Shown here in pieces: positions 1,370 to 61,860 of a stretch of 64,000 bases of DNA. The first letter of the stretch is position 1. The number at the start of each line of letters is the position of its first letter. Source of the DNA: Phyllobates terribilis (taxonomy: Eukaryota); assembly GCF_046119375.1 (NCBI RefSeq), contig NW_027362771.1:416392001-416456000 (forward strand). The letters run 5' to 3'. The notes below the pieces were generated by a model that was not told the origin of the DNA, searched no databases, and saw only the letters and a program-made list of their open reading frames with translations. Made by a program: the position numbers and the translations under genes.

Positions 1370-2561
1370 TGACGCGCCCCCTGGGCCAGTGTTGTTGGGG
1401 ATACCCGGAGCCGGATCAGATGGGGGTTGTAGTCTCCGAGTGGCGGTGACCCGGTCCGTGCCCAGGGTGTCAAACTCAGTGTGTGGCAGTCCTACAGATG
1501 TTATTAGAGTTCTTTGTGTCGACTACGCCACCCGTTGATTCGCGGTCAAAAGGCCGCCGCTGCAGCAGGGTCCGCTGAGGCTGTTGGTATGTGTGCAGCT
1601 TTGGTAGTATAACCCCCAACGGGAGGGGTATAGCCTCAGGGGGTCAGCCGTGGAGGATGGTGGTTGTGAAGGTGCAGCAAAGAGACTCAGAGGCATAAAA
1701 TGCAGTTCCAGGGTTTTACTTACTGGTGTTGCTCGGGTCACTGTTTACAGCAGTGACCACCCGAGCTGTGCTGCGTCCACCAGGTCCTGGACTCGGTCAA
1801 CTCCCAGGCAACTCCGGAGTGTGGTCCTGAGCTCCTTTCTGACTCTCCCTTCTTCTGGCCGTTCCCACCAGGGATCCACCTAAGTCCGGCTCCCTTGGGC
1901 CTCTTGTTGGTCAAGCCTCCTCTGGGCTCCCTGACCCTATTCTTGGTCTGCCTTCCGGGTGGATTTAGTGGGTGGTCGTGGCAGATCCTGCCCACGACCT
2001 CTGGTCTCTGGCTGAGGATTAGTGCTGTGGCCTCCACCAGCTTGGGATCCGGTACCCTGTTGCCGACCCTTCACTCTTTTGTCCTTATTTTGGGATCTTG
2101 GGGTCCCCTCTGCGCCTCTGGGTCTCTCTTCCTTCTCCTCTGCTCTGCTTCTCAGGCTCTCAGACAGACTGTCTGACTGACTGACTGTGGCTGACTGACT
2201 GACGTCTCACAGACTGACCCTGATCTAAGATGGTTCCCACCTTATATACTCCCTCTATGTGTGAGCTCAGGTGACCAGCACCCAATGAGCTCCTAGCTTT
2301 ACCCAGGCTGCTCCCCCTATCTGCCCCTACACTACTGGGATGTTCCACCCCCCTCCCACTCCAGCCAGGAACAGACACTGTCGTACCTGCACATTTCTCT
2401 AGTGGGAGTACCATCGGTCTGTTCCTCGGAAATGGGATGTGTGTAGTGCATGCAGCTAACTGAGCTCAGTTCCACATTCCATCCTTACCCGGGAGTGGAA
2501 TATCACACCTCTGGGTTGAGGTGCAATACCCCTGTAGCAGCCGAATCCTCAGGGTGCTACA
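1370..2561 (-). mobile_element. Solo LTR related to the LTRs of the cold-shock-domain element at 51496-56214
   Basis: TG...CA termini (tgacgcgcccc...ggtgctaca). Shares gtggcggtgacccggtcc and cacacctctgggt...gca blocks with 54966-56214. Flanks cttt/tttt are only an imperfect TSD. Confidence 0.75.
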
Positions 2562-13510: not shown

Positions 13511-13599
13511 CTATATGGGAGGGAACAGCCTGCATGGGGCATTATGTGGAGAGAACAGCCTGCGTGGTGCATTATGTGGGGGGAACAGCCTGCATGGAG

Positions 13600-21567: not shown

Positions 21568-22505
21568 GACCTCTCCGGGCAGGAATGGATCCGGTGCTCC
21601 TTACTGCCACAGTAGAAGCAGCTCCCCTCGGCACGGCGTAACTCTTGACGGGTTTTGACCATCTTGGTCTGGTCGACCTGCATAGGCTCGGGTGAGTGCG
21701 CCTGGGGAGTAGCGGGAGAAGTAACAGATTTCTGAAAGGTAGGGGCTAGACGTGGAAACCTCCTCACCCCGGGTGACCTCTTTGGCGCGTTCCTGGAACC
21801 GGATGTCAATCCGGGTGGCAAGAGTTATTAAGTCGTCAAGTGTGGTAGGTATGTCCCGACCGGCAAGTTCATCTTTAATACGGCCGGACAGACCCTCCCA
21901 AAAGACAGACACCAGGGCGTCGTTATCCCAGGCCAGCTCCGAAGCAAGGGTACGGAACCGTATGGCATATTGGCCCACGGTGAGATTTCCTTGATGGAGG
22001 CGTAGCAGAGATGATGCAGATGAGGTCTTCCGTCCGGGTTCGTCGAAGACTTTCCGGAAAGCCGTGAGAAAGGCTGGCAGGTCGGACACCAGGAGGTCTC
22101 CTCTCTCCCATAGAGGATTTAGCCAAGCCAGTGCCTCCCCCGTGAGATGGGACATGATGAATGAAGGCTACTTTGGCCCGGTCGGAGATAAACTTGTGGG
22201 ACAGGAGTTCAAAGTGCAGGGTGCACTGGTTTATGAAGCCCCGAGCTTGAGCGGGGTCGCCTCCGAAGCGAGGAGGTGCAGAAAGCCGGGGTCCGGGGCA
22301 GGATGCCATGGTATTGGTGGGCAGTGGCGCTGCCGGGCTGCGAGTCATGACACTAGTGGTGGTTGCTGGTGGAGCAGTCAGAGTGTCCAGGCGAGAGTTG
22401 ACATTCCGCAGATGACTCAGGATGGACTCCTGTTGGGACCTCTGACGGGACAGTTCATGACATAGGTCCGAGAGCGAGGGAGCTTGGGTGCCACCGGGTT
22501 CCATG
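21549..22505 (-). pseudogene. Element A gag (CCHC zinc knuckle), broken by two frameshifts
   Basis: MEPGGTQAPSLSDL...PPRFGGDPAQARGFINQC. A 4-nt duplication (ttcattca) near 22160 and a second shift near 21775 interrupt it. Ends CFYCGSKEHRIHSC-PERSGNACV*. G GGA AAC slippery site at 21567-21561. Confidence 0.88.
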
Positions 22506-39700: not shown

Positions 39701-41647
39701 TCATCTGTGATGCAGGTAAAAAATGGACGTGTCCATGATTTTTGCACTGATACAAGGTCCTTTAAAGAAATACGTACTCGTGAACAGCCCCATAGACTAT
39801 AATGGGTATGTGTTCTATTTGTGAGAGTCATGGATAGAACAAGTACCTGAAAAATGGATGTCTGAATAAAGCCTTGAAGCTTAGATTCCTTATAATACCC
39901 ATATTTTACTGTGATGACAGATTTACAAACCCTTTCCATTCTCTCAAGCATCTTCATCAGGTAGTCACTTGGAATGACTTTCCAACAGTCTTAAAGGCAT
40001 TCGCAAAGTTGCTCAGCTTTGTTAGTTGCTTTGCTTTCACTCTCTGGTCCAAATCATCCCAAAACATCTCAATTGGGTTGAGGTCAGATGATTGAGGAGG
40101 CCATGTCATATGACACAGCACTCCATGTCGTTGCAGAATCCTGGGATAGCAATGATGGGTAAATGTGCCTTGAATTCTGAATAAATCACCAACAGTGTCA
40201 GCAGTAAACCAGACAAACACCAACAAACCTCCCCCTCCATGCTTCATGGTGGTCATCAAACATGAAGAAATCATCAGCTCACCTTTTTGTGTCTCAGAAA
40301 AACAGAGGTGGATACCAAAAATCCCAAATTTTGACTCATCAAACCACAGTACAGATTTCCAGTGATCTAATGTTCAGTCTTTGTATTGCTTGGCTTAAAT
40401 AAGGATCTTCTTGTTTACGGTCCTCAGTAGAGACTTCTTTGCAGCAGTTTGATAATAAAGGCCTGCTTCTCACAGTCTCCTTTGGACAGCTGATATTGAG
40501 TTGTGTCTGCTAATTGATGTCTGTGCATCATTTAATTGAGGTTATCTGAGCTGCTGTCAGTTTGTCGTTTCTGAGACTGATAACTCTGATGAAGTTATCC
40601 TCTACCGCAAAGCTAATGCTTAGTCATCCTTTGCTGAGATGGGCGTGATGAGAGCCAATTTCATTATAGTGAATGATGGTTTTCATGGTTGTTCTTAAGG
40701 ATACCTTCAAAGTTCTAGCAACTTTCCAGAAATGCTGACTTTGAAACTGTGTGCCAACACTGCCTTGGCACAACACACCTGATAGTTTCAAACACTTTCT
40801 AAAAGCCAGTGATTCCACAAATGGACTCTTGTTGAGACCTATCTGTTCATTGAAAGCCATTCCAGGTGATACCTGATGAAGCTGCTTGAGAGAATGCCAA
40901 GGGTGTGTAAAGCTATCATCAGAGTAAAAGATAGGTACTTTGAGAAATCTAAGCGTTATCACTTATTCTAATTTGTTTCACATGTGTTCTTTTCTCCTTG
41001 TTTCCATATGTGTTCCTTCATGGTTTTGATGCCTTCAGACTTAATCTACAATGTGCACATTGCAATAAGAACTAGGAAAACCTGTCACGCTGTCTCTGTA
41101 TACTGGAGGTAGGGGGCCTAAGCTGACCCTAAGCTGGGGCCCTGACTAGTCCCTCAACCTGGAGGTACTGTTAAAGGTACAGAGGTCCAGGCCGCCAGCG
41201 TAACCCCTACCTCCTGAGGATCCCTGCACCTAAGTAATCTAGTCCTGAGAAGGACCCCGATCACAACAAAAGGGGACAAGTAATAATATGCCCACACACA
41301 GTACTTAGACGAACGAGACAGTACAAGGGAAAAACCAAAACCACCTTGCATACAACAACTACACAACTACAACAGAGGGAACACCAATGGGAAAGGAGAT
41401 AAATGATAAAGCGAGGAAGGGAAAAAACACTCCAAATACACTTATCTCAGAAACTCCAAACACCACGATCCGCTCTGTTAGTCTGAATGAAATGCTTTCA
41501 CCGACACTTCCCAAACAGACCAGCAGGCATTTGAAGGAGTCTCACTACAGCAGTATTGATTGCAGCTGGGCGAGGCTGGACCTCGTCTAGCACAGAGAGA
41601 GAGAGAATTAACTCCCTCACTGCCGAAAAACACAAAGCACCAACAAG

Positions 41648-44600
41648 TCAGCTGCGAGAAGTCAGGCTGTGTACTCGTGACGATCTTCGTGGCGACACAC
41701 CCGTGACAGTACCCCCCCTTCTACGAGGGGCCTCCGGACCCTCAGGGCCAGGTTTATCCGGGTGAGTCGTGTGGAAGGCCCGAACTAATCGGTCTGCGTT
41801 AATATCCGACGCAGGAACCCACATCCTCTCCTCAGGACCATACCCTTTCCAATGAACCAGGTACTGAAGGGACCGGCGATTAAAGCGTGAATCGATGACC
41901 CTCGATACCTGGAACTCCAAGTTACCATTGACCACCACTGGAGGGGGAGGTAAAGGTGACGGTACCACCGGCGCCACATACCTCTTAAGCAACGATCTGT
42001 GGAACACGTTGTGAATTTTAAACGTAGGGGGGAGGTCAAGACGGAATGCCACCGGATTAATAATAGAACTGATTCTGTACGGCCCGATGAACCTGGGACC
42101 CAGTTTCCAGGAGGGAACCTTAAGTTTAATATTCCTGGTAGACAACCATACCCGATCGTTCACACTTAGGTCCGGACCAGACACTCTCCTCCTATCAGCC
42201 ATACGTTTGTATCGGTTCCCCATAGTATTCAGATTCTTCAGCACCCCTCTCCATACTGAAGCGAGTGATGAGGAAAATCGTTCCTCCTCAGGAACCCCCG
42301 AAGAGCCCCCCCTACTGAAAGTACAAAACTGGGGGTGAAAACCATATGCCCCAAAAAACGGGGACTTACCAGTGGACTCGCTCCGCCTATTATTAAGAGC
42401 AAACTCTGCCAGAGGTAAGAAAGAAGCCCAGTCCTCCTGGTTCTCTGACACAAAACACCGGAGATATGTCTCCAAGCTCTGGTTCATACGTTCCGTCTGA
42501 CCATTGGTCTGAGGATGAAAAGCCGATGAGAATGACAAATGCATCCCCCGCCGTGCACAAAACGCCTTCCAGAACTTGGACACAAACTGAGACCCCCGAT
42601 CAGACACCACCTCGGAGGGTACCCCGTGAAGCCTCACAATCTCCCCAATGAACACCTGCGCAAGAGTTTTAGCATTAGGGAGAGCCGGAAGAGCGATAAA
42701 ATGTGCCATCTTGCTGAACCTGTCCACTACAACGAGTATGACCGTTTTACCCGAAGACGGAGGGAGGTCCGTAATAAAGTCCATAGACAGATGAGTCCAA
42801 GGACGCTCCGGGATCTTCAAAGGTAAGAGGGCCCCAGACGGACGGGTATGTGAGGTCTTAGAGCGCGCACAAACCCCACAGGACGCGACAAAAGTTACCA
42901 CCTCCTTATGTAAGTTAGACCACCAAAACCGACGCGAGAGGAGATCCACTGTTGCTTTACTCCCCGGGTGTCCTGCAAAAACTGAGTTATGGTGTGCCTC
43001 GATCACCTTTTGTCGCAACTGATCTGGAACAAACAGTCTCCCCGGAGGTCCAACAGGGGCGTCCCCCTGAGCCTCCAATACCTCCTCCTCCAGCTCAGAG
43101 CATACTGCCGAAACCACCACCCCCTCCTGAAGGATAGGAATCGGGTCGTCCGTATTCCCGGCCCCAGGGAAACTACGAGATAAGGCATCCGCCTTTACAT
43201 TTTTTGACCCAGGACGATATGTAACGACAAAATTAAACCTGGTAAAAAACAATGACCACCTAGCTTGTCTGGGATTCAGACGTTTCGCGGACTCCAGATA
43301 TAGCAGGTTCTTGTGATCGGTGATGACGGTGACCGGATGGACTGCCCCCTCCAAAAAATGGCGCCACTCCTCAAAAGCTAACTTAATGGCCAAGAGTTCC
43401 CTATTGCCGACATCGTAATTCCTCTCAGCGGACGACAATTTTTTAGAGAAAAAGGCGCACGGATGCCACTTACCAGGGGACGAACCCTGTGACAATACTG
43501 CTCCCACCCCTACCTCGGAAGCGTCTACCTCTACAATGAATGGCTGTGACGCATCAGGTTGAATGAGTATGGGTGCCGAGGCAAAACATTTTTTCAAGGA
43601 GGAGAATGCTTGACAAGCCTTGTCAGACCACCTAGAAAAATCCGTCCCCCTTTTAGTCATGTCTGTTAGAGGCTTAACCATGGACGAGAAATTACGAATG
43701 AACTTCCGGTAATAATTAGCAAACCCCAGGAAACGTTGTAGTGCCTTAAGATTCTCTGGACGATCCCACTCAAGAACTGCCCGCACTTTCCCAGGGTCCA
43801 TACGAAAACCGGACGCTGAAACCAGGAAGCCTAAAAACTGGAGTTCCTGTACGGCGAACACACACTTTTCCCATTTGGCATACAGTTTATTATCCCGCAA
43901 GATCTGTAACACCTGCCTAACGTGCTCCTGATGAGACACCAGATCCGGCGAGTAAATTAAGATATCATCCAGATATATGACAACAAACTGTCCCACCAGG
44001 CGGCGAAAAATGTCATTAACAAAGTGTTGGAACACCGCCGGGGCATTAGTCAGACCGAATGGCATGACAAGGTTCTCATAATGCCCCTCCGGAGTGTTAA
44101 ACGCCGTCTTCCACTCATCCCCCTCCTTCATCCTAATCAGATTGTACGCCCCCCTGAGATCCAACTTAGAGAACCATTTGGCGCCCACGATCTGATTAAA
44201 GAGATCGGGAATAAGTGGGAGCGGATACGGATCTCGGACCGTAATCCGATTAGGTTCACGGAAATCCAGGCAAGGGCGTAGGCCTCCATCTTTCTTCTTA
44301 ACAAAGAAGAACCCCGCAGCCACCGGTGAAGATGAAGGTCTAATATGCCCCTTAGCCAGACTTTCTGAAATATAATCCTTCATGGCCTGCCTCTCAGGAC
44401 CAGAAAGGTTATACAACCTAGCTTTAGGTAACTTGGCCTCAGGGAGCAGTTTTACAGAACAGTCATACTCGCGATGAGGAGGTAGTTCCTGACACCCTTT
44501 CTCTGAGAATACATCCTCAAAGTCCGCCAGAAATGGAGGTAAGACCCAAGGAGTAACCGCACCGATGACCGTGTTCATGCAGTTTTTATTACAGAATTTA

Positions 44601-45031
44601 CTCCATTGGCTTATCTCTCTGGTTTGCCAATTAATAACAGAGTTATGCTTAGCTAACCAAGGAAGGCCCAACACTATAGGAGTGGGAAGACCCTCCAACA
44701 CGTAGCAAGACAACAGTTCTTTATGTATTGCCCCCACTTGAAGTTTTACGTCATGCACAGCTTGCAAAAAACTTCCCTGACCGAGAGGCCTGGCATCGAT
44801 CGAGAATATGGGGATGGGTTTAGCCAACTCACTCAATCGCATACCTTGAACCCGGGCAAACCGAGCATCAACCAGATTAGCCCCGGCCCCACTATCCAGA
44901 AGAACAGATATCCTCTCAGTTCTCGTACCCACCACCACCTCCGCCGGTACGAGAAACTGAGACGAACCTAGGGACGAAATACCTACTCCCAGATTGCCGT
45001 CCACCACACAACCTGGGATCAACAGTTTTCC
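41648..45031 (-). CDS. Element B pol: protease-RT-RNaseH-integrase-chromodomain, uninterrupted
   Basis: LLDSGAG; VVIYLDDILIYS; HHCC; SDRGSQF; GPYRI; EFQVSRVIDSR...HWKGYGPEERMWVP. Confidence 0.94.
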   Translation of the reverse strand, partial: GKLLIPGCVVDGNLGVGISSLGSSQFLVPAEVVVGTRTERISVLLDSGAGANLVDARFARVQGMRLSELAKPIPIFSIDARPLGQGSFLQAVHDVKLQVGAIHKELLSCYVLEGLPTPIVLGLPWLAKHNSVINWQTREISQWSKFCNKNCMNTVIGAVTPWVLPPFLADFEDVFSEKGCQELPPHREYDCSVKLLPEAKLPKARLYNLSGPERQAMKDYISESLAKGHIRPSSSPVAAGFFFVKKKDGGLRPCLDFREPNRITVRDPYPLPLIPDLFNQIVGAKWFSKLDLRGAYNLIRMKEGDEWKTAFNTPEGHYENLVMPFGLTNAPAVFQHFVNDIFRRLVGQFVVIYLDDILIYSPDLVSHQEHVRQVLQILRDNKLYAKWEKCVFAVQELQFLGFLVSASGFRMDPGKVRAVLEWDRPENLKALQRFLGFANYYRKFIRNFSSMVKPLTDMTKRGTDFSRWSDKACQAFSSLKKCFASAPILIQPDASQPFIVEVDASEVGVGAVLSQGSSPGKWHPCAFFSKKLSSAERNYDVGNRELLAIKLAFEEWRHFLEGAVHPVTVITDHKNLLYLESAKRLNPRQARWSLFFTRFNFVVTYRPGSKNVKADALSRSFPGAGNTDDPIPILQEGVVVSAVCSELEEEVLEAQGDAPVGPPGRLFVPDQLRQKVIEAHHNSVFAGHPGSKATVDLLSRRFWWSNLHKEVVTFVASCGVCARSKTSHTRPSGALLPLKIPERPWTHLSMDFITDLPPSSGKTVILVVVDRFSKMAHFIALPALPNAKTLAQVFIGEIVRLHGVPSEVVSDRGSQFVSKFWKAFCARRGMHLSFSSAFHPQTNGQTERMNQSLETYLRCFVSENQEDWASFLPLAEFALNNRRSESTGKSPFFGAYGFHPQFCTFSRGGSSGVPEEERFSSSLASVWRGVLKNLNTMGNRYKRMADRRRVSGPDLSVNDRVWLSTRNIKLKVPSWKLGPRFIGPYRISSIINPVAFRLDLPPTFKIHNVFHRSLLKRYVAPVVPSPLPPPPVVVNGNLEFQVSRVIDSRFNRRSLQYLVHWKGYGPEERMWVPASDINADRLVRAFHTTHPDKPGPEGPEAPRRRGGTVTGVSPRRSSRVHSLTSRS

Positions 45032-45858
45032 GACGACTCTTCACTCTGCAAGGGACGGGATGGACACCCCCCAATAAAATGTCCCTTTCTCCCGCAGAAG
45101 AAACACCTTCCTGTCTTATGGCGCACCACCGGTTCCCTCCCCCGAAATGATGTCCCTCCTAATTGCATAGGCTCCTCTGGACTGACCAGGGGAACCACCA
45201 TATGAGGGGACCTTGTAGGAGGTGGAGTCATCACAGGGGGTAGAGTTATCCCGCACCTCTCCCGAAGCCGTCTGTCAACGCGAATAGCAAGGGCCATAGC
45301 GGCTTCCAGTGACGCGGGAGAGTCATACTGTGCCAACACATCCTGTAATTTGTCGGATAAACCATGACAAAACTGGCTCCTAAGAGCCGGGTCATTCCAC
45401 TGGGTGTCCGTGGCCCACCTACGGAACTCCGAACAGAATTCCTCCGCCGGACGATCTCCCTGCTGGATCCTACGTAACTTAGACTCAGCAAGGGAGATCC
45501 GATCTGGGTCATCATATACGAGTCCCAGAGCAGCGAAAAACCTATCCACTGACTGGAGAGCCGGGGAGCCCGGGGGAAGAGAGAACGCCCAAGATTGTGG
45601 GTCCCCTTGTAGGAGCGAGATGACAATTCCCACCCTTTGTTCTTCACTCCCCGATGACCGAGGCCGCAGCCGAAAGTACAACTTGCATGCCTCCCGGAAA
45701 ACAAAAAACTTGTCCCGCCCCCCAGTGAACCTGTCAGGGAGAGCTACTTTAGGTTCTGGTCCGGCTTACTCCTGAGGATGCAAAACCTTGGACCTAACGT
45801 CCGCCAGCTCCATGGACAAACTCTGCAACTGCCGAGCTAGACCGGCTACTGGATCCAT
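45019..45858 (-). pseudogene. Element B gag with a single TAA at codon 31
   Basis: MDPVAGLARQLQSL...HPQE*AGPEPKVALPDRFTGG...CFFCGRKGHFIGGC. G GAA AAC variant slippery site at 45031-45025. Confidence 0.88.
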
Positions 45859-47055
45859 GGTAGCTGGAGAAAAACTAAGTGGGTCGGTGAAAATGTCACG
45901 CTGTCTCTGTATACTGGAGGTAGGGGGCCTAAGCTGACCCTAAGCTGGGGCCCTGACTAGTCCCTCAACCTGGAGGTACTGTTAAAGGTACAGAGGTCCA
46001 GGCCGCCAGCGTAACCCCTACCTCCTGAGGATCCCTGCACCTAAGTAATCTAGTCCTGAGAAGGACCCCGATCACAACAAAAGGGGACAAGTAATAATAT
46101 GCCCACACACAGTACTTAGACGAACGAGACAGTACAAGGGAAAAACCAAAACCACCTTGCATACAACAACTACACAACTACAACAGAGGGAACACCAACG
46201 GGAAAGGAGATAAATGATAAAGCGAGGAAGGGAAAAAACACTCCAAATACACTTATCTCAGAAACTCCAAACACCACGATCCGCTCTGTTAGTCTGAATG
46301 AAATGCTTTCACCGACACTTCCCAAACAGACCAGCAGGCATTTGAAGGAGTCTCACTACAGCAGTATTGATTGCAGCTGGGCGAGGCTGGACCTCGTCTA
46401 GCACAGAGAGAGAGAGAATTAACTCCCTCACTGCCGAAAAACACAAAGCACCAACAAGTCAGCTGCGAGAAGTCAGGCTGTGTACTCGTGACGATCTTCG
46501 TGGCGACACACCCGTGACAAAACCAATGCAAGAAAAGGTGTGCCCAAACTTTTGACAGCCACTGTATTTATGAACTTTTCTGCTACATGAATTTGTATAT
46601 ACAACAATGGTGATGCTCCAATCAATCCAAAAAAGTGTATCAAATGATCCATAATTTAATTTGTTCCGCATTAATTTGGTGAATTTGGTGATCAGTTATT
46701 ATAACCTTAAAGGGAACCTATCAATACATTCATGTTGTCAAAACTTTGGTCAACAAGAAATATTGATGCACTTTACAGTGAACTAAGATGTAATCTGAAA
46801 CATTAACATCTCAGAAAGTAAAGTATGAAATTAAGCTGGACATGGGGCAACAGTCCACATAGCGACACCCCTCCGACTTCTCCCCACATGATTCAGCTGG
46901 ATAGACAGCTCTATCCTTATATTCATATAACATAGTTCTTTGCAATGTGATAGTATATTATTGTGATTAGGGCAAAATCACATATCTAATATTGTGAAGG
47001 TCCCACATGTGCCATTAAGCAGCTGTGAGCCATTGGGACATGAACTCTAAAATCA

Positions 47056-47650: not shown

Positions 47651-50600
47651 CAGTCATGGCTGAAAGTGTTGGCACCCTTGAAATTGTCCCAGAAAATGAA
47701 GTATTTCTCTCAGAAAATTATTGCAATTACACATATTTTGTTATACACATGTTTATTTCCTTTGTATGTATTAGAACAACACAAAAAAACAGTAAAAAAG
47801 GCAAATTGGACATAATTTCACACAAAACCCCAAAAATGGGAGGACAAATTTGTTGACACCTTTCCAAAATTGTGAGCAAACAACTTTGTTTCAAGCATGT
47901 GATGCTTGTTCAAACTCACCTGTGGCTAGTAACAGGTGTGGGTAAAATGAAAATCACTCCTGAAATCAGATACAAAGGGGAGAAGTTGACCCAATCTTTG
48001 CATTGTGTGTCTGTGTGTGCCACACTAAGCATGGAGAACAAAAAGAGGAAAAGAGAACTGTCTGAGGACTTGAGAACTGAAATTGTTGAAAAATATCAAC
48101 AATCTCAAGGTTACAAGATCTTGATGTTCCTTTTCCATGGTGCGCAACATAATCAAGAAGTTTACAACCCATGGCACTGTACCTAATATTCTTGGACGTG
48201 GACGGCAGAGAAAAATTGATGAAAGGTTGCAATGCAGGATAGTCTGGATGGTGGCTAAGCAGCCTCAATTAAGTTCCAAAGAAATTCAAGCTGTCCTGCA
48301 GGCTCAGGGTGCATCAGTGTCAGCGTGAACTATCCATCGACATTTGAATGAAATTAAACGCTATGGCAGGAGACCCAGGAGGACCCAACTGCTGACACAG
48401 ACATAAAAAAACTAGACTGCAGTTTGCCAAAATGTATAGTACAGACCAAAAGTTTGGACACACCTTCTCATTTAAAGATTTTTCTGTATTTTCATGACTT
48501 TGAAAATTGTACATTCACACTGAAGGCACCAAAACTATGAATTAACACATGTGGAATTATATACTTAACAAAAAGTGTGAAACAACTGAAAATATGTCTT
48601 ATGTTCTAGGTTCTTCAAAGTAGCCACCTTTTGCTTTGATGACTGCTTTGCACACTCTTGGCATTCTCTTGATAAGCTTAAAGAGGTAGTCACCGGAAAT
48701 GGTCTTCCAACAATCTTGAAGGAGTTCCCAGAGATGCTTAGCATTTGTTGGCCCTTTTGCCTTTACTCTGCTGTCCAGTTCATCCCAAACCATCTCGATT
48801 GGGTTCAGGTCTGGTGACTGTGGAGGCCAGGTCATCTGGCGTAGCACCCCATCACTCTCCTTCTTAGTCAAATAGCCCTTACACAGCCTGGAGGTGCGTT
48901 TGGGGTCATTGTCCTGTTGAAAAATAAATGATGGTCCAACTAAACGCAAATCGGATGGAATAGCATGCCGCTGCAAGATGCTGTGGTAGCCATGCTGGTT
49001 CAGTATGCCTTCAATTTTGAATAAATCCCCAACAGTGTCACCAACAAACTACCCCCACACCATCACACCTCCTCCTCCATGCTTCACGGTGGGAACCAGG
49101 CATGTAGAGTCCATCCGTTCACCTTTTCTGCGTCGCACAAAGACACGGTGGTTGGAACCAAAGATCTCAAATTTGCCTGTCCTTAGCAGTGGTTTCCTAG
49201 CAGCTATTTTACCATGAAGGCCTGCCGCACAAAGTCTCCTCTTAACAGTTGTTGAAGAGATGTGTCTGCTGCTAGAACTGTGTATGGCATTGACCTGGTC
49301 TCTAATCTGAGCTGCTGTTAACCTGAGATTTCTGAGGCTGGTGACTCGGATAAACTTATCCTCAGAAGCAGAGGTGACTCTTGGTCTTCCTTTCCCGGGG
49401 CGGTCCTCATGTGAGCCAGTTTCTTTGTAGCGCTTGATGGTTTTTGCAACTGCACTTGGGGACACTTTCAAAGTTTGCCCAATTTTTCGGACTGACTGAC
49501 CTTCATTTCTTAAAGTAATGATGGCCACTCGTTTTTCTTTACTTAGTTGCTTTTTTCTTGCCATAATACAAATTCTAACAGTCTATTCAGTAGGACAATC
49601 AGCTGTGTATCCACCTGACTTCTGCACAACACAACTGATGGTCCCAACCCCATTTATAAGCAAGAAATCCCACTTATTAAACCTGACAGGGCACACCTGT
49701 GAAGTGAAAATCATTTCCGGTGACTACCTCTTGAAGCTCATCAAGAGAATGCCAAGAGTGTGAAAGCAGTCATCAAAGCAAAAGGTGGCTACTTTGAAGA
49801 ACCTAGAATATAAGACATATTTTCAGTTCTTTCACACTTTTTTGTTAAGTATATAATTCCACATGTGTACATTCAGTGTGAATGTACAATTTTCAAAGTC
49901 ATGAAAATACAGAAAAATCTTTAAATGAGAAGGTGTGTCCAAACTTTTGGTCTGTACTGTACGTAAGGCAAAGTCCTTCGGGGAAAGCGTCTTGTGAACA
50001 AACTAGACCAAGATAGAGCTTTTGGTAAAACACATCATTCTACTGGTTACCTAAAGCGGAATGAGGCCTACAAAAAAAAGAACACAGTACCTACAGTCAA
50101 ATATGGTGGAGGTTCAAAGATGTTTTTGGGAAATCTGAAGATCACCAGAGGATTTTGGGTCGCAATGTAGTGCCCAGTGTTGGAAAGATAAGTTTCTATT
50201 CTAGGTCATCGGTCTTTCAGCAGGACAATGACCCTTAACATACTTCAAGAAGCACCCAGAAATAGATGGAAACAAAGCGTTGTAGAGTTCTGAAGTGGCC
50301 AGCTACGAGTCCGGATCTAAATCCCTTTGAGCACCTGTGGAAAGATTTTAAAATTACTGTTGGGAGAAAGTGCCCTTCAAATATGAGAGACCTGGAGTAG
50401 ATTGTAAGAAGAGTGGTCCAAAATTCCAGTTGAGAGATGTAAGAAGCTTGTTGATAGTTATAGGAAGCGATTAATTGCAGTTTATTCCAAAGTGTGTGCA
50501 ACAAAATATTAAGTTGAGGATGCCAACAATTTTCTCCGGCTCATCTTTGGGATTTTGAGTGAAATTATGTCCAATTTGCCTTTTTTTCTCAATTTTTTGT

Positions 50601-51432: not shown

Positions 51433-53355
51433 CTATATCGGAGTTGAATAAACGACACTTGGAGCTGTGTGTCTGATGTTATTCTTTCTTGCATGTGACG
51501 TGCCCCCTGCGCCGTGGGGAACTCGGTAGCCGGGCCGGTCGTTGCTAGGGGAGATGTCACAGTGGCGGTGACCCGATCCGTGACCCAGGGCGGTCAATAA
51601 AAAGGGGATATTTACAGGGGATTTATGGTTTTTATATACAGTTCGTGACGCCACCTGTGCTATGCGGCTATATGGAGCTGCCGCTGCGGAGCAGGTCCTC
51701 TGGAGCTGGTGTAAATGCAGCAGAGTTGGTTTAGCTCTCCACAGGTAGAGCTTAGCTCCAGGGCTGTGCTGAGTTGTTATGGATGTTGTGGTGTAGTGCA
51801 GGGGGTGATGGCGCAGCAATAACTTCACAGAGACAGTGGGGTGCAGTCTTCAGAGTTTACTCACAGTTGTTAAGTTCCTCAGGTTGCACTGTCCAGCTTA
51901 CAGCCTCCCACGTTCACCAGGCAGGGGTTCAGCAATCCCTCAGGTATTTCAAGAGTGCCTGACAGGACCCCGTTCTATATGACCTTCTCAGCCGTCTTTC
52001 TGCGCTGGCTCTCACCCTTCTTGCCCTGCGCCTCGCCAAACAATGTCCCAAGCCGGTATCCTCAGATCTTTCTGGGCAACCTGGAGTTCCCTGGATCCTA
52101 TGTGGTTACCTTTTTGGCGACTTGAGTGCGGATGTGGCAACTGCACCCTGAAAGTACAGAAGCCTCCGGTTTGCAGTTGAACTTTGTAATTCTCACTGAT
52201 TAGGGGCCGGTCCCCTCTGCGGCTCGATCCCTCCACAGATTCGGGCGTATGGATGGCCTCCAGCACTGCCCGTACCCCTGGGATCCCTTCTTCGTTCCTG
52301 GAGCCTTTCTCCTGCTCCTCTCTCCTTTCTCCTCTCCTTCTCAGTCTTGGGCCTCTCTCCTAGGCCCTCCTCCTGAGCAGAGCTCCTGCTCCCCTCAAAC
52401 TCCACCGACTGACTGGCCTCTCTTTCCAAGATGGTTCCCTCTTTTATATCACTTCTAACACGTGTTTGCCTGATCTACGTCCTCCACCCACACCCACTAC
52501 ATGGTTCCTCCTACTTTGGTTTCCCCCACTCCAACCAGGGACCTCAGCAGGAAGCGCGACACATCTTGCCCTTCCAGCTTGTCTGGAGTAGTGTAATGTT
52601 GGATGCAGGTGTTAGGGTCCCGGGCAGCACTCTATCCTTACCTGAGAGTGAGATACCACACCTCTGGGTGAGATGCAGTACCTCTGTGGCAACTGAACCC
52701 GCAGGGGCGCCACATACCCCCTTGGTAAAACACAGCACGTCTGCGGGCTGGAACAGAGTAAAGCACAAAATATTTTAAAGACATGCAATTTTTAGAATGC
52801 ATTCGCATATAAGATCATAAACAAACTTTTTCTTCCCTTTATGGGAGGCACATTCCTTGAACGTTACATGTTTCTTATCAAGAATTTTTAAAACATTATA
52901 AAACTTTTTCAATACAATTTTCTTCACATTTATAAAACATTTCTCATATAAAACATTTTTAGTAGGCTACAGCGCAATCTGCAACCGGCTGTCCATTCTT
53001 TTCAACAAGGTGCAATCTAGCAAACATGAGCATGAGGGACCGGTCCGAAAACCCTCAACGTAGGCCCTGGGCGTGGCTGCAGGGCATAGGTGATCCAGGT
53101 GTTGGACCAGGTCTTCGGCCACGCCAAATGGGTTTTTGTTCTGAGGTCATCTCCGTTGCACCAAACCAATAAGGGGCACTTTAAGAAGTGCAACTATTTA
53201 CAAGGACAGTTTTCGGCTGCTCACAGTCCTCAGCCTGTCAATCTTTGGTACCCTTGCCGGGTAATTATGGAAACACACTCATAACTTTTTCCAGTTTACA
53301 CCAACATAGCTGTACCCTTCCGGGTAACTATATACAGTACAGTTCCACCTACTGC

Positions 53356-54596
53356 TCAGTAGTGGTGCTTCCTCCCGGGAAACAACTCCTGTCCATTATA
53401 AGCTGGCCCAGCCGGGTCATCAGCTCTAGATGGCGAGGGTTCACTCTTCTCCACCACCCTGTGGACGTTCAGGGCATACCAGCCCCTCTCACCTCTATGC
53501 CTGGTGTAGGTGACGTGATCACCAGGGTAGAGATTCCGATCTGGATGTCCTTCCTTTAGGTGGGACTCCAGGTCCCTCCTGTTGACAAAAAGATCTGTCT
53601 CGGTGTGTGGATCCCGGATGAAACCCCATCCTCCATCCAGGTTAAACTTCACCATGGTCCCTTCGGCACGGGGACCATGTGCAGCTTCCTTGTTTTTGCG
53701 GGCCCGGGCCTTCTCCTCCATGTTCCGGGCCTCTAGTCTCTCCCAGCACACCCGCCGGAGGTGCCGCTCTTTTTCCAGCTGCGCCAGCTCCCTCTTGCAG
53801 TGCTCCACCTGGCGCGCAGCCTCTGCTCTGGTCTCCCGGGGAAACCCCATGAGGTCCCCCCCAGGGTTGTCCCACAGGAACTGGTCCTCTTCACTCCCAG
53901 AGATGGCTAAGGGCTCAGGAGCGGGTAACAGCGGGAGGCTACGGTTTTTCACCTCCGCGGACCAGTCCCAAGGCAGACGCTCGTACACCCACTAAGGTGT
54001 CAGAGGCGGTGGTTCCTGCAAGGGGCCCAGGAGCGGGCCAGCGTCACTGGTGCCCGGGGTGACGGTTCCAGGCTCCGAGGTACGTTTAGGGCGTTCGAGC
54101 CCGGCGACGGATGATATTCCAGGAGGGCTAAGAACGGATCGTCATTTTCCACGCCCAGGGATGGAGGGCTCTGAAGGGGGACCAGGTGCGGGCCAGTGTC
54201 GGTAGCGCCTGGTGTTGACGGTTCCGGCAGGGGGTCCAGGAGCAGGTCAGCGCCTTCAGCGCCCGGGACAGGGAGACTCCTCTTACCTGCTCCCGAGGCT
54301 GCTCCTGTGCTGCACTCTGCCTCCTGGTGCTGATCTGGCTCCACCAAGGCTGGGGCGCTGCCTGCTTCTTGCAGCGCTGGCTGCTGCCGGTTCGCCATCC
54401 TCTCGACCATCTCCTTTTTCCAGGTGGCGATGGCATCCTGCTGGGCCCTCTCCATCCTCCGACTTAGGTCCTCCATCCCGGCGTAGAGGAACTCTGTATC
54501 CTCCCGGGACAGCTTGGATACCATCTCCTCCAAGGTGAGGGGTGCCTCAGGCTGTTGCAGGCCGCTGGCGGGAACTCCTGTCTCACCTCCCTCCAT
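53356..54596 (-). pseudogene. Coiled-coil plus cold-shock-domain protein, split by a frameshift and a TAG near 54000
   Basis: Kozak ATG at 54596 (gcaagATGg), helical LEEMVSKLSRED...ERAQQDAIATWKKEMVERM. A second frame holds a helical segment then the CSD (53670-53458): EGTMVKFNLDGGWGFI (RNP1), TDLFVNRRDL (RNP2), NLYPGDHVTYTRHRGERGWYALNV. Confidence 0.8.
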
Positions 54597-54943
54597 CTTG
54601 CCTGCCGGTTGCCATCTGTCTAGACTGCTTGAGACCACACCGTCTCCCAGTTTTCTTCTTTTTTCCTCTCCCCTTTCTGGGGCGGTCCCATGGCTGCTTG
54701 CTGTCGGACACACCTTTGGGCAGCCCCCCCAGCTTGATGGACATATCCACATACATGGTCACTGTTGCTCGGGGCGGGCCTCGCTTTTGGCGCCATTCTG
54801 GAACCCGGCCCACGATGGGAGGCGGTTTCTTGTTGTCTTTTGGCTCGCACATAATGGCCCCCGTTCTTCTGGGGTGGGCGCCACACTCAGTACAGGACAC
54901 AGTTTCCAGGCGCACAACACCCGGCGACAACGGGTGGGCTCAT

Positions 54944-54961
54944 ATCCTGTTCGTGACGCCA
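54944..54961 (-). promoter_or_regulatory. PBS complementary to the tRNA-Ser(CGA) 3' end
   Basis: TGGCGTCACGAACAGGAT is the complement of ...ATCCTGTTCGTGACG-CCA, the recalled 3' end of vertebrate tRNA-Ser-CGA; 4 nt from the LTR end. Confidence 0.85.
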
Positions 54962-56289
54962 AAGATGACGCGTCCCTGGGCAGTGGGGTACTCGGTAGCC
55001 AGGCCGGTCGTTGCTAGGGGAGATGTTACAGTGGCGGTGACCCGGTCCATGACCCAGGGCGGTCAATAAAAAGGGGATATTTACAGTGGATTTATGGTTT
55101 TTATATACAGTTCGTGACGCCACCTGTGCTATGCGGCTATAAGGAGCTGCCGCTGCGGAGCAGGTCCTCTGGAGCTGGTGTAAATGCAGCAGAGTTGGTT
55201 TAGCTCTCCACAGGTAGAGCTTAGCTCCAGGGCTGTGCTGAGTTGTTATGGATGTTGCGGTGTAGTGGAGGGGGTGATGGCGCAGCAATAACTTCACAGA
55301 GACAGTGGGGTGCAGTCTTCAGAGTTTACTCACAGTTGTTAAGTTCCTCAGGTTGCACTGTCCAACTTACAGCCTCCCGCGTCGCGCTATGTTCACCAGG
55401 CAGGGGTTCAGCAATCCCTCAGGTATTTCAAGAGTGCCTGACAGGACCCCGTTCTATATGACCTTCTCAGCCGTCTTTCTGCGCTGGCCCTCACCCTTCT
55501 TGCCCTTCGCCTCGCCAAACAATGTCCCAAGCCCGTATCCTCGGATCTTTCTGGGCAACCTGGAGTTCCCTGGATCCTATGTGGTTACCTTTTTGGCGAC
55601 TTGAGTTTGGATGTGGCAACTGCACCCTGAAAGTACAGAAGCCTCCGGTTTGCAGTTGAACTTTGTAATTCTCACTGATTAGGGGCCGGTCCCTTCTGCG
55701 GCTCGATCCCTCCGCCGCCTGGCAGATTAGGGCGTACGGGTGGCCTCCAGCACTGCCCGTACTCCTGGGATCCCTTCTTCGTTCCTGGAGCCTTTCTCCT
55801 GCTCCTCTCTCCTTCCTCCTCTCCTTTTCAGTCTTGGGCCTCTCCTAGGCCCTCCTCCTGAGCAGAGCTCCTGCAGAGCTCCTGCTCCCCTCAAACTCCA
55901 CCAACTGACTGGCTTCTCTTTCCAAGATGGTTCCCTCTTTTATATCACTTCTAACACGTGCTCCCCTGATCTACGTCCTCCACCCACACCCACTACATGG
56001 TTCTCCCTACTTTGGTTCCCCCCACTCTAACCAGGGACAGGGCTCAGCAGGAAGCGCGACGCATCTTGCCCTTCCAGCTGGCCTGGAGTAGTGTAGTGTT
56101 GGATGCAGGTGTTAGGGCCCCGGGCAGCACTCTATCCTTACCTGAGAGTGAGATACCACACCTCTGGGTGAGATGCAGTACCTCTGTGGCGACTCAACCC
56201 GCAGGGGCGCCACACATGCACTTGACCATATCCATTAGGCCAGGAGCAGGCAACTAGTGAACATATCAAAATGTTCGCCCTAACATTTT

Positions 56290-56308: not shown

Positions 56309-57152
56309 CAGCAGAGGGAGAAGCCCTACACCCTTAGGACCGGCGAGTGGAACGGCAGGACGCACTGAATACACCGAGCCAGGAGACTGATCACCTCCTT
56401 AACCAAACACGGTAAGTCTGCTGATTTTTATAATCTGTAGTCTTTTCCTGTGTTCCTCGGGGTATCCTGTGCAGATTGCCTGACTGTGTCCGGTTTTTGA
56501 GGTATCTGTAAGACGGCAGAAGGGTCTCTCCACTGCTGGCCATTTAATTGCGGAAGAACCGTCACGTGCTCAGTTGCCTGCTGCCTGTTATGTGTCGTGT
56601 TGAGGGGAGATTGACTGGTATTAAAAGAGAGCAAGTGGGTTTTTCAGCGGTGTCTGGAGAAGTAAAGGATATTGTCTGTGGTACAGTTAACATTTGTCGC
56701 CTGTGATACGATTTTCAGTTCTGGTGGAGAAAGTAGGGGTACTTAGCCTGGAGTGAGTGACTCGGCGTGGCCTGGAGTGAGTGACTCGGCCTGGTACCGG
56801 CACGGAGCCTGGAGTGAGTGACTCGGCCCGGAGCCTAGTAAATTGAGTTTCGGCACGTAGCCTAGAGTGAGTGACTCGGTACGGGGCCTGGTAGTTGGAT
56901 TAGTAAATTGAGTTTCGGCACGTAGCCTAGAGTGAGTGACTTGGTACGGGGCCAGGTAATTGTATTAATACAGGTGTTTTATTTATTTTTTATATATATA
57001 TATATGGAAATCAGACAGGGACTACGTGGCAGGACGGAGACAGATAGAAAGTGTGTGCTGCAGACTTAGTTTTCCTTTAGAATCTCAGGTTTGAGTCATT
57101 CTCCCCCGTCTTATTGTTCGTTTTGTGTTTATTTTGGTCTATATAGAGAAAG

Positions 57153-59360
57153 ATGGAGAAATTAATGCAGTTTTGTCGTATTGGCACTAAGCCAAATTCA
57201 GATGGCAAGTTGGACCCGTGTGCATTAGATGCGACTCGTGAAGGGAAAACTCATGTTAAACAATGTAAAAAGCTTATGAAGTTGAGTGGAATGCCAGAAG
57301 GGGGGAGGTTACAGCCCCTGGAGTGGAAGACTGTCTTAAAAGAGAGAAAAGGTACTCTAGAAGATAATGAATTGTTGTCTACTGCTAGAGCATTGGAAAG
57401 AGTCTCTGAAAGTTTGTATAGAGAAAATTGGTTAGAAGAGGAAAAGAAAAAGGACAGAGTTTTGAGTTATGTGTATTACAAAAATGTATCCTGTGAGCGG
57501 CCACCGCCATATAATGGTGGTGATGGTGGCACATTGCCATGTGCTGTTTCTGGTGGTGGCCATTTTGTGGATGGCACATGGGCTCCTTCTGGTGGCAGCC
57601 ATTTTGTAGATGGCAAATGTGCTCCTTCTGGCGGCAGCCATTTTGTGGATGGCAAATTTGCTCCTTCTGGCGGCAGCCATTTTGTGGATGGCAAATGTGC
57701 TCCTTATGGCAGCAGCCATTTTGTGGATGGCAAATGTGCTCCTTCTGGTGGCAGCCATTTTGTGGATGGCAGATGTGCTGCCTCCGGTGGCGGCCATCTT
57801 GGAACGTTGCCCCAGATTATACAAACTGAGCCATATCATCATGTAACTGACATAGATCTGGCTAAATCGAGTGAGGCATAATCCAGGAATATACACACGT
57901 CTTTCGGTGGTGAACATACTAGGCCAATGTTACACACCACAAGACCAGATCCTTTTTACCCAGTAATGACTACTAATGGCCAGTACTATACTTCTTCGGG
58001 AAGTGATCATGCTTTACCCATGTTCCCTGTCACAAAGGTGTCCAGTGAGTCACCAACCCTTTCACCTAACACTCCCATCGTGAGCCCAGCTATTCTCCCA
58101 CCTGGATCATCCCCAGCACTTTCCACTGTCACTTCCCCTGGCAACTCAGCCACACGTCCACATGAGTTACTTCAAGCAGCGACCTCTCCTCCCAACGCTT
58201 CCGCTACAACAGCACTCTCACGCAGTCTACTTAACTCTATTCCAGTACCTCACAGTCTCTCTCGCAGCCGAGCGCACACCTGTATGGAACGATGGCCACT
58301 GAATCAAGGAGGGGCTCAATCTGGGGGGGACACCAACATCACAGGAAGCACAAAGGGTAGGGAATGTTGGCAACCCATTTTTGAAAAAGAACTTCCTGAG
58401 GGACCCTTGTTAGTGGTGGGTAAGGGTGACATAACGACAATGGAAACAGACGCTATTGCTAATGCTGCCAACCCTCGGTTAGAGCACAACGGAGGTGTGG
58501 CTAGAGCTATAGTGGAGGCAGGAGGGGCGACTATTCAAACTGACAGTCGAATCATTGTTGAGTCGCGTGGTCAGATAGCTGTTGGGGACAGAGCCGTGAC
58601 TAAATCTGGCAATCTTCATTGTAGAATGATCTTACACGCTGTGATCCCTACTTTTGATCCTATTCATCCACATGTCAGTGCCCGACAACTACGCGCTGCA
58701 ATAACTCGTATCTTAGAGTATGCGAATATTAGTGAGCAGATTGAGACCTTGACAATTCCTGCCATTGGTGTTGGCCTCTTCGGGTTCCCTGTTCATGCGT
58801 GTGAAAGGGAGATTGTTGGAATTATAATGAACAAGTTTAGCCCCCCAAGCATTTGCTGCCTCTCCGAAATCAGGTTAATTAGTAATGAGGACAGGACTGT
58901 TAAAGCTTTTAAGACTGCCTGCATCACCTGGACTCCACCCCATGATATTGGAGCTGCCCAAATAGAGCCCCTCATTCCAGGACTGTTACCTCCCTCTGCT
59001 CCTCATACACAAGTAATTACACCTGTACTTCCATTGCCATCTCTACTCCCGCCTCAGGTGCCACCACCAACCCTGCCAACACCCACGTCTGAGGAGCCCA
59101 TCCTTTATGTCAAGTGTATACCCCAGCAAGCTGCTACTCTGCTGAACCAACTCACAGATCCAGAAAAACAGCCGATGCCTTTCTAGAGAAGCATGCTTCA
59201 AATCCAAAGGAATTACACCTCCACATGGCAAGATCTAATTTCCCTGGCAAATCTTAAAGCAGGCGATGCATATTGGCCTGTTATGGACACTGCATTAAAT
59301 GATGCCTCACTTGTCAGTGACACCACATGGGACTCTGGTGCTCAGTTCTGCCAACAACTT
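57153..59360 (+). pseudogene. ERV gag: MA-like N-terminus, PPPY late motif, 13-aa repeats, Pro-rich region, macrodomain, CA N-terminus; one frame with two in-frame stops
   Basis: ORFs 57153-57881, 57927-59186 and 59193 onward share one frame. Stops TAA 57879 and TAG 59184. CA-like LYVKCIPQQAATLLNQLTDPEKQP...YTSTWQDL. Confidence 0.85.
58380..58925 (+). CDS. Macrodomain (MacroD/PARP14-like ADP-ribose-binding fold) within ERV gag
   Basis: KGDIT, DAIANAAN, HNGGVARAI, AVTKSGNL, ILHAVIP and IPAIGVGLFGFP occur in canonical order and spacing, with no stop inside the domain. Confidence 0.93.
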
Positions 59361-61860
59361 AAGCTCCGAGCAGTTAACGCGGCAACCGTACTAGAAAGTC
59401 CCATTGTGCCCAATCCACATACATTGTTATCAGAAATACCATCAGATGCAAAACGTTTCACTGTCATCGATCTGGCCAATGCTTTCTTCAGCGTACCACT
59501 ACATCCAGAAGATTGGTACCTGTTTGCCTTCACTTACAGAGGATCACAATACACCTGGACAGTCTTACCACAAGGAGCACAGAACTCACCAAGTCATTTC
59601 TCTCAGGCCCTTGCCTCTTGTTTACAGCCGTGGAGAGAGACTAACCATCAAGTTGTCCTTCTTCAGTATGTGTATGATCTCCTACTATGTTGTCAGCAGA
59701 AGAGTCGAGTCTCAGTCTTCTCCTTCATCTTGCACAACAAACCTGCAAGGTGTCCCTCAACAAAATCCAGTGGTGTCAGCCCAAAGTTGTGTTTTTAGGC
59801 CATTGTCTCTCTCCAAACCTGAAACACCTAACGGGTGAAAGGAAACTTGCTATTGAGACCGTTCCTCTACCAAAAGGACCTAAGCAATTACAAGCTTTCT
59901 TAGGACTTATCACATATTGTCGCCAATGAATTCCAGATGCCTCAAAGCTGATGCAACTGTTGTACGATGACCTCAAGACGTCAGCTTTTCCACTTTGTCC
60001 CAAATCCGTGGAAGCCTTCTACGCTCTTTAACAGGCCATACAGTCTGCACCAGCTCTTGGAATCCCAAATTATCTACTACCTTTTTACTTGTGTGTCAGT
60101 GAAGTAGCAGGACATGCTTCCGGAGTCCTAGCACAGAAACACGGGGGAAGAACAAGACCCATCGGCTATTACTCTGCCCGTCTGGACTCGGTGTCTCAAG
60201 CTTCCGCTTCTTGCCTCAGAGCCGTTCATGCTGCACATGTGCTTCTGGACAAAACTTCTGATATCATCTTAGGACATCCGGTTCTCTTAATGGCTCCACA
60301 CGACATAAAAGCTATTCTTGACCAAACTCAACCTAAACATCTGTCGCTGCAGCGTCAAATGAGACTCCAATGTTCCCTCTTGATTCCGGATAATGTCACT
60401 CTTGTCCGCTGCACCATCCTCAACCCGTCCACGCTACTTCCTCTTTCCAGGGGGGATGTGGATGATGCTACTGATGCTCTAGGTGAAGATGCCTTTACAC
60501 ACTAAGAGGATCATGATTGTCTCGAACAGATGCAGGAAGAAGCTGCCTCCAAGAGAAATGTGTCTGAAGACCCACTTCCGCATGCTGACCTGACGTTCTT
60601 CACCGATGGTTCCAGATTTGCAGATGAAACAGGAAGATTCCATATGGGATATGCTGTGGTTACACATGACCAGGATTCATTTAGAAAAGAGAAAGCAGCC
60701 GTGTACATGTCTCAAGACACTGAAGAAGGGCCTCAAAGCTCTCTTATGAAGTTTTATCCATTTCCATCAAGACAAGACACCAGATGATGAAAAGAAGTCG
60801 TGGCAAGAAGCAGGAGCTAAAAAGGATGAAGATGGAGTCTGGAGGAAGAACAAAAAGATTTGTCTACCTCGTAATCTGTACCACTCGGTATCAGAATGGG
60901 CACACGGTATCACCCAGAGAGGCAAGAATCAGATGAATGACTTGATTTGGAAGACTTATATGGCACATGGGATTTCTACTGTCACCCAAAAATATTGTCC
61001 TGCTTTGTGTGTGCAACATGCAATCCAGCACCGCCTCAAAAAGTTACTCTGAAACATTTGGCTAAACCACTCTATCCCTTTCAAAGAATTCAAATCGATC
61101 ATATTCAAATGCCAAAAGTAGGGAAATACGAGTATGTACTGGTAGTGACTGACATGTTCTCGGGATGGCCTGAAGCCTATCCAGTAACCAACATGACTGA
61201 CAGAGTGACTGTTAAAAGAGACTGATGACTGAGGTAGTGTGCAGATATGGAATCCCAGAGGTGATTGAGAGTGACCAAGGACCCGCATTCATTTCAGCAC
61301 TGACTAAGGAACTATGGACATTGGTAGGGCCCGATTTGGGTTTACATACTCCGTATCACCCCTAGAGCAGTGGTAAAGTAGAAAGGCTAAATGGCACCTT
61401 GAAAAACAAAATACTGAAAGCCAGTCAGGAGGTTAAACTTCCTTGGACAGACATTTTGCCCATTGCCTTATATTCAGTCAGAAACACTCCGAGGGGTCCA
61501 GCTAAACTTACACCACATGAGATTCTTTTTGGGGAGCCTCCAAGGTTGCGTCAATATTTTCCACAACAGCTAGCCTTAGGAAGTGATACTCTTGTAGATT
61601 ATGTCATTGCTCTTACTAAAGAATTGTCAGTAATACATGCATGAGTTTTATCATCCATTCCAGATCCAGATTTCAGTGAAGGTACTCACACTTTCCAACC
61701 TGGTGACAACGTGCTGGTAAAGAAGTTCACCAGAAAGACATCCCTGGAGTTGAGATTTGAGGGTCCCTACCAAGTGCTCCTGACCACTCCTACTTCAATC
61801 AAACTCTAAGGAAGACCGACGTGGATACACGCCTCCCACTGCAAGAAGTTTGTGCCTCCA
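59361..61860 (+). pseudogene. ERV pol remnant (RT, partial RNaseH, integrase) with stops, frameshifts and deletions; protease absent
   Basis: LRAVN...FTVIDLANAFFSVPL...LPQGAQNSP...YVYD (YVDD mutated); FFTDGS; IQIDHIQMP; SDQGPAF; WIHASHCKK. Confidence 0.92.

Follow-up and report, generated by a model that had tools for sequence, protein, structure and literature searches.

Cold-shock domains (CSDs) have entered long terminal repeat (LTR) retroelements before: one study describes CSD capture in 46 bird endogenous retroviruses (ERVs), for which its authors suggest a possible help to proliferation (PMC12287698). Here we describe a group of LTR elements in the poison frog Phyllobates terribilis, met in a 64,000-nt stretch of contig NW_027362771.1 (positions 416,392,001 to 416,456,000, hereafter the window) of a genome of 10.6 Gb. 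Like the bird CSD-ERVs these are LTR retroelements with a captured CSD (PMC12287698). In that study the 46 bird elements are scattered, have reverse transcriptase (RT) and derive from several captures with the domain in varied positions, two rows matching pfam00313 at 1e-24 to 1e-26, close to the host, whereas in the frog group one old, diverged CSD lineage is the sole cargo of pol-less gypsy elements, occurs in tens of thousands of copies and is under purifying selection. On balance we think it probable that this is a non-autonomous Ty3/gypsy passenger group with a selected, YBX-like protein that coats and stabilises the element RNA.

Helper-passenger pairs are well known among LTR elements, and large retrotransposon derivatives (LARDs) and terminal-repeat retrotransposons in miniature (TRIMs) are defined as non-coding. 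Elements of the LARD and TRIM type resemble the frog group in lacking pol, in having the primer-binding site (PBS), polypurine tract (PPT) and LTR ends in common with an autonomous partner, and in forming tandem arrays and chimeras; the frog group differs in retaining a selected open reading frame (ORF) unrelated to Gag, and its interior is not non-coding, with open ORFs and a ratio of nonsynonymous to synonymous divergence (dN/dS) <1. Satellite viruses and defective interfering genomes, by analogy, are like the passengers helper-dependent, with one protein of their own and deleted offshoots, whereas the passengers are intragenomic retrotransposons and their own protein is a predicted RNA-binding domain, not a capsid. 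The host protein YBX1 (YB-1) shares with the frog protein the CSD fold, the loop length, a Pro/Ala-rich part and a charged tail, and YB-1 has been linked to retroviral RNA stability (PMC6040738). The frog protein differs in having ~30% identity to YBX1 within the CSD only, replaced Trp and His contacts and two extra helices, and in being encoded by a mobile element.

In the literature searched, which lay outside Repbase, Dfam and most subscription papers, we found no description of a pol-less LTR group with a CSD as its sole selected cargo; the main texts of PMC6278860 and PMC11152451 hold no relevant CSD passage, and their supplements or repeat libraries could hold the family unnamed. CSD capture and helper-passenger pairs are already known; what is new is the size of the group, its division into three clades, its CSD-deleted offshoots, a chimera and a repeat in the U5 region of the LTR. 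The usual view of non-autonomous LTR elements is that they are parasites with no coding capacity or with gag alone. Here selection has preserved a host-type RNA-binding domain in tens of thousands of copies, across clades and frog genera, and this suggests that retrotransposition includes an accessory step so far unrecognised.

The window element

Window positions 51496..56214 hold a minus-strand element with TG...CA ends. A first-pass annotation, made from the letters of the window, had read here an LTR pair, a CATG target-site duplication (TSD), a tRNA-Ser(CGA) PBS and a PPT, all of which were confirmed to the base. Its parts, in window coordinates, are:

51492..51495, no strand: left TSD, CATG (sequence; empty-site joint)
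51496..52714, minus: 3' LTR, 1219 bp, TGTGGCG...GTCA (LTR alignment)
52715..52730, minus: PPT region, resembling that of autonomous partners (AGGGGGAA/TA ahead of TGT)
53023..53267, minus: 3' non-coding segment, 72-80% identity to autonomous gag-pol elements (sequence comparison)
53356..54852, minus: family ORF region, in three frames in this copy (frames, relatives)
53458..53664, minus: CSD with RNP1 GWGFI and RNP2 DLFVN (Pfam, structure model)
53695..53829, minus: conserved 45-residue helix (predicted), just ahead of the CSD
54381..54533, minus: N-terminal helical segment (predicted), conserved across subfamilies
54944..54961, minus: PBS, 18/18 complementary to the tRNA-Ser(CGA) 3' end, with a 4-nt spacer to the LTR
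54966..56214, minus: 5' LTR, 1249 bp (LTR alignment)
55324-55333, minus: AGTAAA signal in the 5' LTR
55937-55948, minus: TATA-like box in the 5' LTR
56215..56218, no strand: right TSD, CATG (sequence)

The LTRs differ by 45 mismatches and 6 gaps (Kimura two-parameter distance, K2P, 0.038) and enclose an interior of 2251 bp. An empty-site joint without the element was present in contigs from 3/3 sequencing runs examined, presumably RNA runs whose contigs carry no information on expression, the flank possibly being itself a repeat. The PBS string follows a T-loop motif at 20 places in the genome; of the 3 such loci scanned with ARAGORN, 1 was identified as tRNA-Ser(cga). The annotation's claim of an interior free of gag and pol domains was borne out: a Pfam scan of 5 interior frames gave no match to capsid, zinc knuckle, protease (PR), RT or integrase (IN), and the 1 frame passing the cut-off did so with the CSD only. 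The gag and PR-RT-RNase H-IN complement of an autonomous Ty3/gypsy interior is absent from this element and was found only in the putative helpers described below. A Gag origin of the family ORF was considered and rejected, the ORF profile matching the helper Gag profile at 0.4% probability. The 3' non-coding segment is likely a cis signal. The ORF changes frame near 54640 and near 54000, and its linker is shorter than in most relatives; because the coding region is split over three frames, this copy is dead. The annotation had suggested checking a family consensus for one intact ORF with dN/dS <1; relatives have open ORFs of ~480 codons and are under purifying selection.

Family size, clades and activity

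Three LTR clades carry the CSD-type ORF, which is ~480 codons long in open relatives, open ORFs of 450-600 amino acids (aa) occurring in many copies. Among DNA matches to the CSD region, the first-listed 20 of 40 have a common 4.7-4.9-kb layout, although some are cut short or interrupted, and two of them have a single open 480-aa ORF ending in the CSD, with RNP1 reading GWRF. The exact Ser(CGA) PBS has 8,117 genomic occurrences, the first 30 of which comprised 4 CSD-type, 23 gag-starting (2 also with part of a CSD) and 3 unassigned sites. A narrower PBS pattern gave 736 sites; in the 40 fetched the ORF was matched in 40/40 and the CSD in 34/40, the interior was 1.5-2.3 kb in 18/21 measurable copies, and pol matches occurred at 6 loci, all outside the element, nested or on the opposite strand.

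The sister clade, with a Ser(AGA) PBS, has 69,769 exact sites, and 16/30 first sites were CSD-type, giving an estimate of ~37,000 CSD-type copies (95% interval 24,000-50,000) from a 30-site sample taken wholly from one chromosome end. Perfect 4-bp TSDs flank 13/16 of these position-picked AGA copies and the LTR pair is 99.0-99.9% alike in 14/16; a CSD is present in 11/16, a frame unbroken from the N-terminal motif through the CSD in 5/16, and internal pol in 0/16. The CSD-type passenger group is recently active. With ~4.9 kb for each copy, passengers of the youngest clade would make up some 0.1-0.25 Gb of the genome. A genome-wide PF00313 search returned 33,380 first-look candidates; the best of those scored were mostly long open frames and belong to the AGA clade. 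The same clade accounts for a further LTR in the window:

1370..2561, minus: solo LTR belonging to the Ser(AGA) sister clade, carrying an AGA-type PBS repeat

The annotation had placed this LTR in the element's own clade; it is related, but with K2P 0.11-0.13 to young AGA LTRs and 0.25 to the window element's LTR it belongs to the sister clade. The third clade (TGTAATAG...TTACA LTRs of 1.03 kb, Ser(AGA) PBS) has LTRs unrelated to those of the other clades and 540 exact junction matches; all 20/20 sampled were of the CSD-ORF type, with CSDs 33-38% identical to those of clades 1-2 (L223, L225-L227, L252-L271).

Single-sequence protein searches found 1 relative each and a profile search 4; matches in an atlas search stayed below 0.9 and count as leads at most. 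A profile search of 1.84 billion proteins, in the best 150 of 940 matches, gave 58-244 bits (single-domain) only in Phyllobates, Ranitomeya (two species) and Anomaloglossus, others scoring ≤40; since annotation pipelines commonly mask repeats, the range given here is a lower bound. A study of another poison frog reports 588 Mb of unclassified LTR elements (PMC11152451), and similar CSD elements may lie within them.

Some copies are rearranged. Three loci on different contigs (L165-L167) have a common foreign cassette whose ATG stands immediately ahead of the CSD, which makes them CSD-only derivatives. CSD matches ~3.63 kb apart (G000:C3:355463560-355471097, C4:51300692-51308214 and C1:582555200-582562713) are consistent with head-to-tail arrays with shared LTRs, a tandem of this kind being present at L219. 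Gene annotation is affected as well: in public models P0001 and P0003 the CSD region of the element is joined to a transposase of Harbinger type and to R3HCC1, either as annotation artefacts or by exonisation.

The cold-shock domain and its donor

The CSD with RNP1 and RNP2 motifs that the annotation had recognised by eye stands. At 53458-53664 it scores 30.4 bits to PF00313 (cut-off 27, E 3.6e-7), its closest solved structures are YBX1 CSDs, and a model of helix plus CSD (32 natural copies as input; mean predicted local distance difference test, pLDDT, 79) matches bacterial Csp and YBX1 at target template-modelling (TM) scores of 0.74-0.87 and has the five-strand oligonucleotide-binding fold of a CSD. 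The full-length ORF was predicted poorly (pLDDT 45), its confident parts being the two helices only. Both Phe of the contact patch (RNP1 and RNP2) are retained, the RNP1 Tyr is Trp, the position of the YBX1 Trp is Lys, and that of the YBX1 His is Asn or Thr. The element CSD is predicted to bind RNA.

Our best guess for the donor is YBX. The element CSD scores equally against YBX1 and CspA (30 bits), and identity to YBX1 is ~30% and confined to the CSD; the loop length, with a 1-residue gap against YBX1 and 5 against CspA, favours a YBX-type over a CspA-type origin. The layout, with a Pro/Ala-rich part before the CSD and an acidic-then-basic tail after it, recalls YB-1. A tree of 41 domains (72 columns) placed 26 frog element-type CSDs on one side of a branch (support 97/99) and 15 canonical CSDs on the other, vertebrate YBX, LIN28, CSDE1 and CARHSP1 being outside the set and CSDE1-like and YBX-like rows below its score filter. 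Searching the genome with a YBX-like pseudogene gave the pseudogene itself as sole match and no host YBX domain.

Divergent, older CSDs of the same lineage occur at G000:C4:791.48-791.52 Mb (L204-L206), L224 and L228-L232, three of them spaced 17-19 kb, and are possibly old elements or a domesticated cluster. One of these loci, L229, was a candidate for an autonomous CSD carrier, with pol upstream of the divergent CSD; it was rejected, the pol being that of a neighbouring chromovirus, and no autonomous CSD carrier was found among the elements examined.

Selection on the open reading frame

We calculated dN/dS by pairwise Nei-Gojobori on natural copies. In 15 open ORFs (2/17 rows were dropped, one a duplicate and one internally shifted; 12/15 were picked by CSD score, which is a bias) the ratio was 0.13-0.15 for the CSD, 0.19 for the preceding helix, ~0.3 for the N-terminal helix and 0.5-0.7 for the linker. 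The first 85 codons of the same ORFs had dN/dS of 0.5-0.7 with low dS and may be leader RNA, not protein. Copies picked by PBS only, 29/41 of them with enough CSD codons, gave 0.68 in the 2 closest pairs and then 0.29, 0.18 and 0.11 as distance rose, that is 0.11-0.29 at a proportion of synonymous differences (pS) of 0.12-0.74; such a fall with distance is the pattern expected of constrained lineages with decaying single copies. The window copy compared with 31 others gave 0.05-0.36 where unsaturated, and 11 AGA copies (42 pairs) had pS 0.56 and a nonsynonymous proportion (pN) of 0.07. By these comparisons the CSD is under purifying selection, with a dN/dS of about 0.1-0.2. Three of the outcomes that by the annotation's own account would refute it, namely no CSD match, a CSD confined to this copy, or neutral evolution, did not occur: a match was found, the domain extends beyond this copy and its evolution is non-neutral.

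Autonomous helpers and deleted offshoots

The autonomous partners that the annotation had proposed to look for exist: they are gag-pol Ty3/gypsy elements whose PBS, U5 and LTR ends agree with those of the passengers. PR, RT and IN motifs are present in 20 gag-bearing CGA elements (~9.6 kb read each), and a CSD of their own in 0/20 CGA and 0/2 AGA gag-bearing elements; CSD-ORF matches in 2/20 of the CGA reads are separate nested or adjacent elements. The helper scanned in full encodes a PNMA-like Gag with a zinc knuckle, together with PR, RT, RNase H and IN; between PR and RT lies a weak dUTPase-like match (L076:1622-2962) of 21 bits, just below the cut-off. Passengers have U5, PBS, leader start and PPT in common with helpers of their own tRNA type, 66-77% alike, and a U3/R unlike that of helpers. 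In a chimera (L216; LTRs 96.5% alike) a helper-type leader and gag start are joined to the 3' half of the CSD element at a short microhomology, as expected from template switching between co-packaged RNAs. We infer that the passengers are mobilised in trans by gag-pol helpers.

The AGA sample also contained offshoots: 3/16 copies (L272, L275, L283) have lost the helix and the CSD to deletions bounded by short repeats, with a different junction in each. These CSD-deleted offshoots look young and the coding lineages are old, a combination that fits partial cis preference with help in trans, as for gag and pol. A system of helper, passenger and deleted offshoot is a measurable case for how cis preference keeps a gene alive.

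A repeat of the primer-binding site in U5

Both LTRs of the window element contain a partial copy of its PBS:

51641..51653, minus: 13-nt repeat of own PBS, U5 of the 3' LTR
55110..55122, minus: 13-nt repeat of own PBS, U5 of the 5' LTR, ~160 nt upstream of the true PBS

Helpers as well as passengers have such a repeat, which copies the initial 10-13 nt of the PBS of the element that carries it and lies 87-178 nt (mostly 150-178) upstream of that PBS. Its type was that of the element's tRNA in 56/60 loci (L034-L063, L174-L203), the other type in 0, and 4 had none; conservation drops where the likeness to the tRNA stops. The repeat could serve as a second tRNA site or act as a decoy, and since the two repeat types are two lineages, its switch together with the tRNA may have been a single event. 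No strong intramolecular partner was found, the best pairing at -15 to -16 kcal/mol against -19 to -23 for a perfect match (no shuffle control), and the literature search gave no published description of such a repeat. L169 has a 177-nt U5 duplication with the motifs at its bounds.

Proposed role and alternatives

In the reading we favour, related gag-pol elements would supply the capsid and the enzymes by which passenger RNA is packaged and copied, and the helix-linker-helix-CSD protein would coat and stabilise element RNA, like host Y-box proteins with retroviral RNA. An RNA-stabilising role is suggested because the layout recalls YB-1 and because YB-1 is reported to support murine leukaemia virus (MLV) and human immunodeficiency virus (HIV) production by viral RNA stabilisation (PMC6040738). 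The protein would likely give its own RNA a partial advantage, letting coding lineages persist long, and would likely also serve neighbours, which would let CSD-deleted offshoots spread for some time. A study of another poison frog, which did not include the CSD group, reports abundant gypsy RNA in ova (PMC6278860).

Several observations weigh against this reading. The offshoot junctions recur in 40/40, 39/40 and 31/40 scored matches at 95-100% identity, giving 31 to at least 40 copies for each offshoot, some of which may be segmental duplicates or recurrent deletions; CSD-less offshoots thus multiply, so the CSD is not required in cis in every round, and its apparent dispensability in some rounds counts against a strict cis role. 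In the window CSD the Trp of YBX1 KWFN is Lys and the His of VFVH is Asn, positions that are RNA contacts in YBX1, and binding may differ from that of canonical CSDs. Segments shared between helpers and passengers are only 66-80% alike and point to no specific helper; the third clade has no autonomous member in 20/20 sampled and no match to 5 helpers; the chimera could have arisen by DNA-level recombination; and the dN/dS pairs are non-independent and many are saturated.

The multiplying CSD-less offshoots would be expected if the protein countered host defences such as silencing by small RNAs, attack on the PBS by tRNA fragments or RNA decay, to the benefit of helper, passenger and offshoot together, making the passenger a partner and not a pure parasite. 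The share of passengers in the AGA clade, about half (16/30), the altered aromatic patch of the CSD and the retention by helper and passenger LTRs of a PBS repeat matching the primer tRNA agree with such a suppressor, but a pure public good should decay, yet dN/dS is ~0.1-0.2 in many lineages, and there is no known target; we regard it as unlikely.

The first-pass annotation had suggested that the CSD substitutes for a nucleocapsid. CSDs melt nucleic acid, and the two conserved helices could dock on Gag, placing the CSD in the helper particle for tRNA annealing and strand transfer. The idea is weakened by the helper Gag's own zinc knuckle, by the replaced aromatic contacts and by the offshoots, which multiply without helix and CSD and still insert with perfect TSDs; with no Gag homology in the ORF either, we find it quite improbable. 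A nuclear, Y-box-like activator of the LTR promoter, acting on DNA, would suit a basic patch near the N-terminus, the Pro-rich linker, the acidic tail and a passenger U3/R different from that of helpers; the basic patch, however, falls within the first 85 codons (low dS, high dN/dS), maybe leader RNA, and no binding site was found, none having been searched for, which makes this role very doubtful. That the CSD is a captured host fragment carried along neutrally is barely credible: the broken ORF of the window copy, the loss of the CSD from offshoots and a pN/pS near 0.7 in the closest pairs (2 pairs) would agree with it, yet the CSD stays 55-90% identical while synonymous sites saturate, is retained in three LTR clades and other frog genera, and has dN/dS values that already contradict neutrality.

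Returning to the reading of a protein that protects element RNA, a wider picture is possible, and we offer it only tentatively: a three-tier retrotransposon community in poison frogs, made up of gag-pol helpers, satellite-like passengers with a Y-box-like protein used system-wide (through RNA protection or blunted small-RNA control) and CSD-deleted cheaters, with a second tRNA site in U5 common to all that changed along with the primer tRNA, in which an accessory-gene satellite would have helped to enlarge these genomes to giant size.

Other features of the window and genome

Elsewhere in the window we observed:

8758-9556, 24686-25702, 27385-28164, 29631-30593 and 49049-49582: presumably Tc1/mariner transposase remnants
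12812-16244: minisatellite arrays with 20-40-nt units
17217-23394 and 41083-46193: a further pair of gypsy elements, presumably chromovirus-like, whose pol frames are 1150 and 1130 aa long and whose LTR blocks are 99-100% identical
57147-60505: retrovirus-like fragment in which a Macro domain at 57885-59186 (86.8 bits in Pfam) precedes pieces resembling RT and RNase H

Outside the window, intron-less multi-CSD frames at G000:C1:734.43-734.45 Mb (L124-L129), interrupted by a long interspersed nuclear element (LINE), are presumably processed copies of CSDE1.

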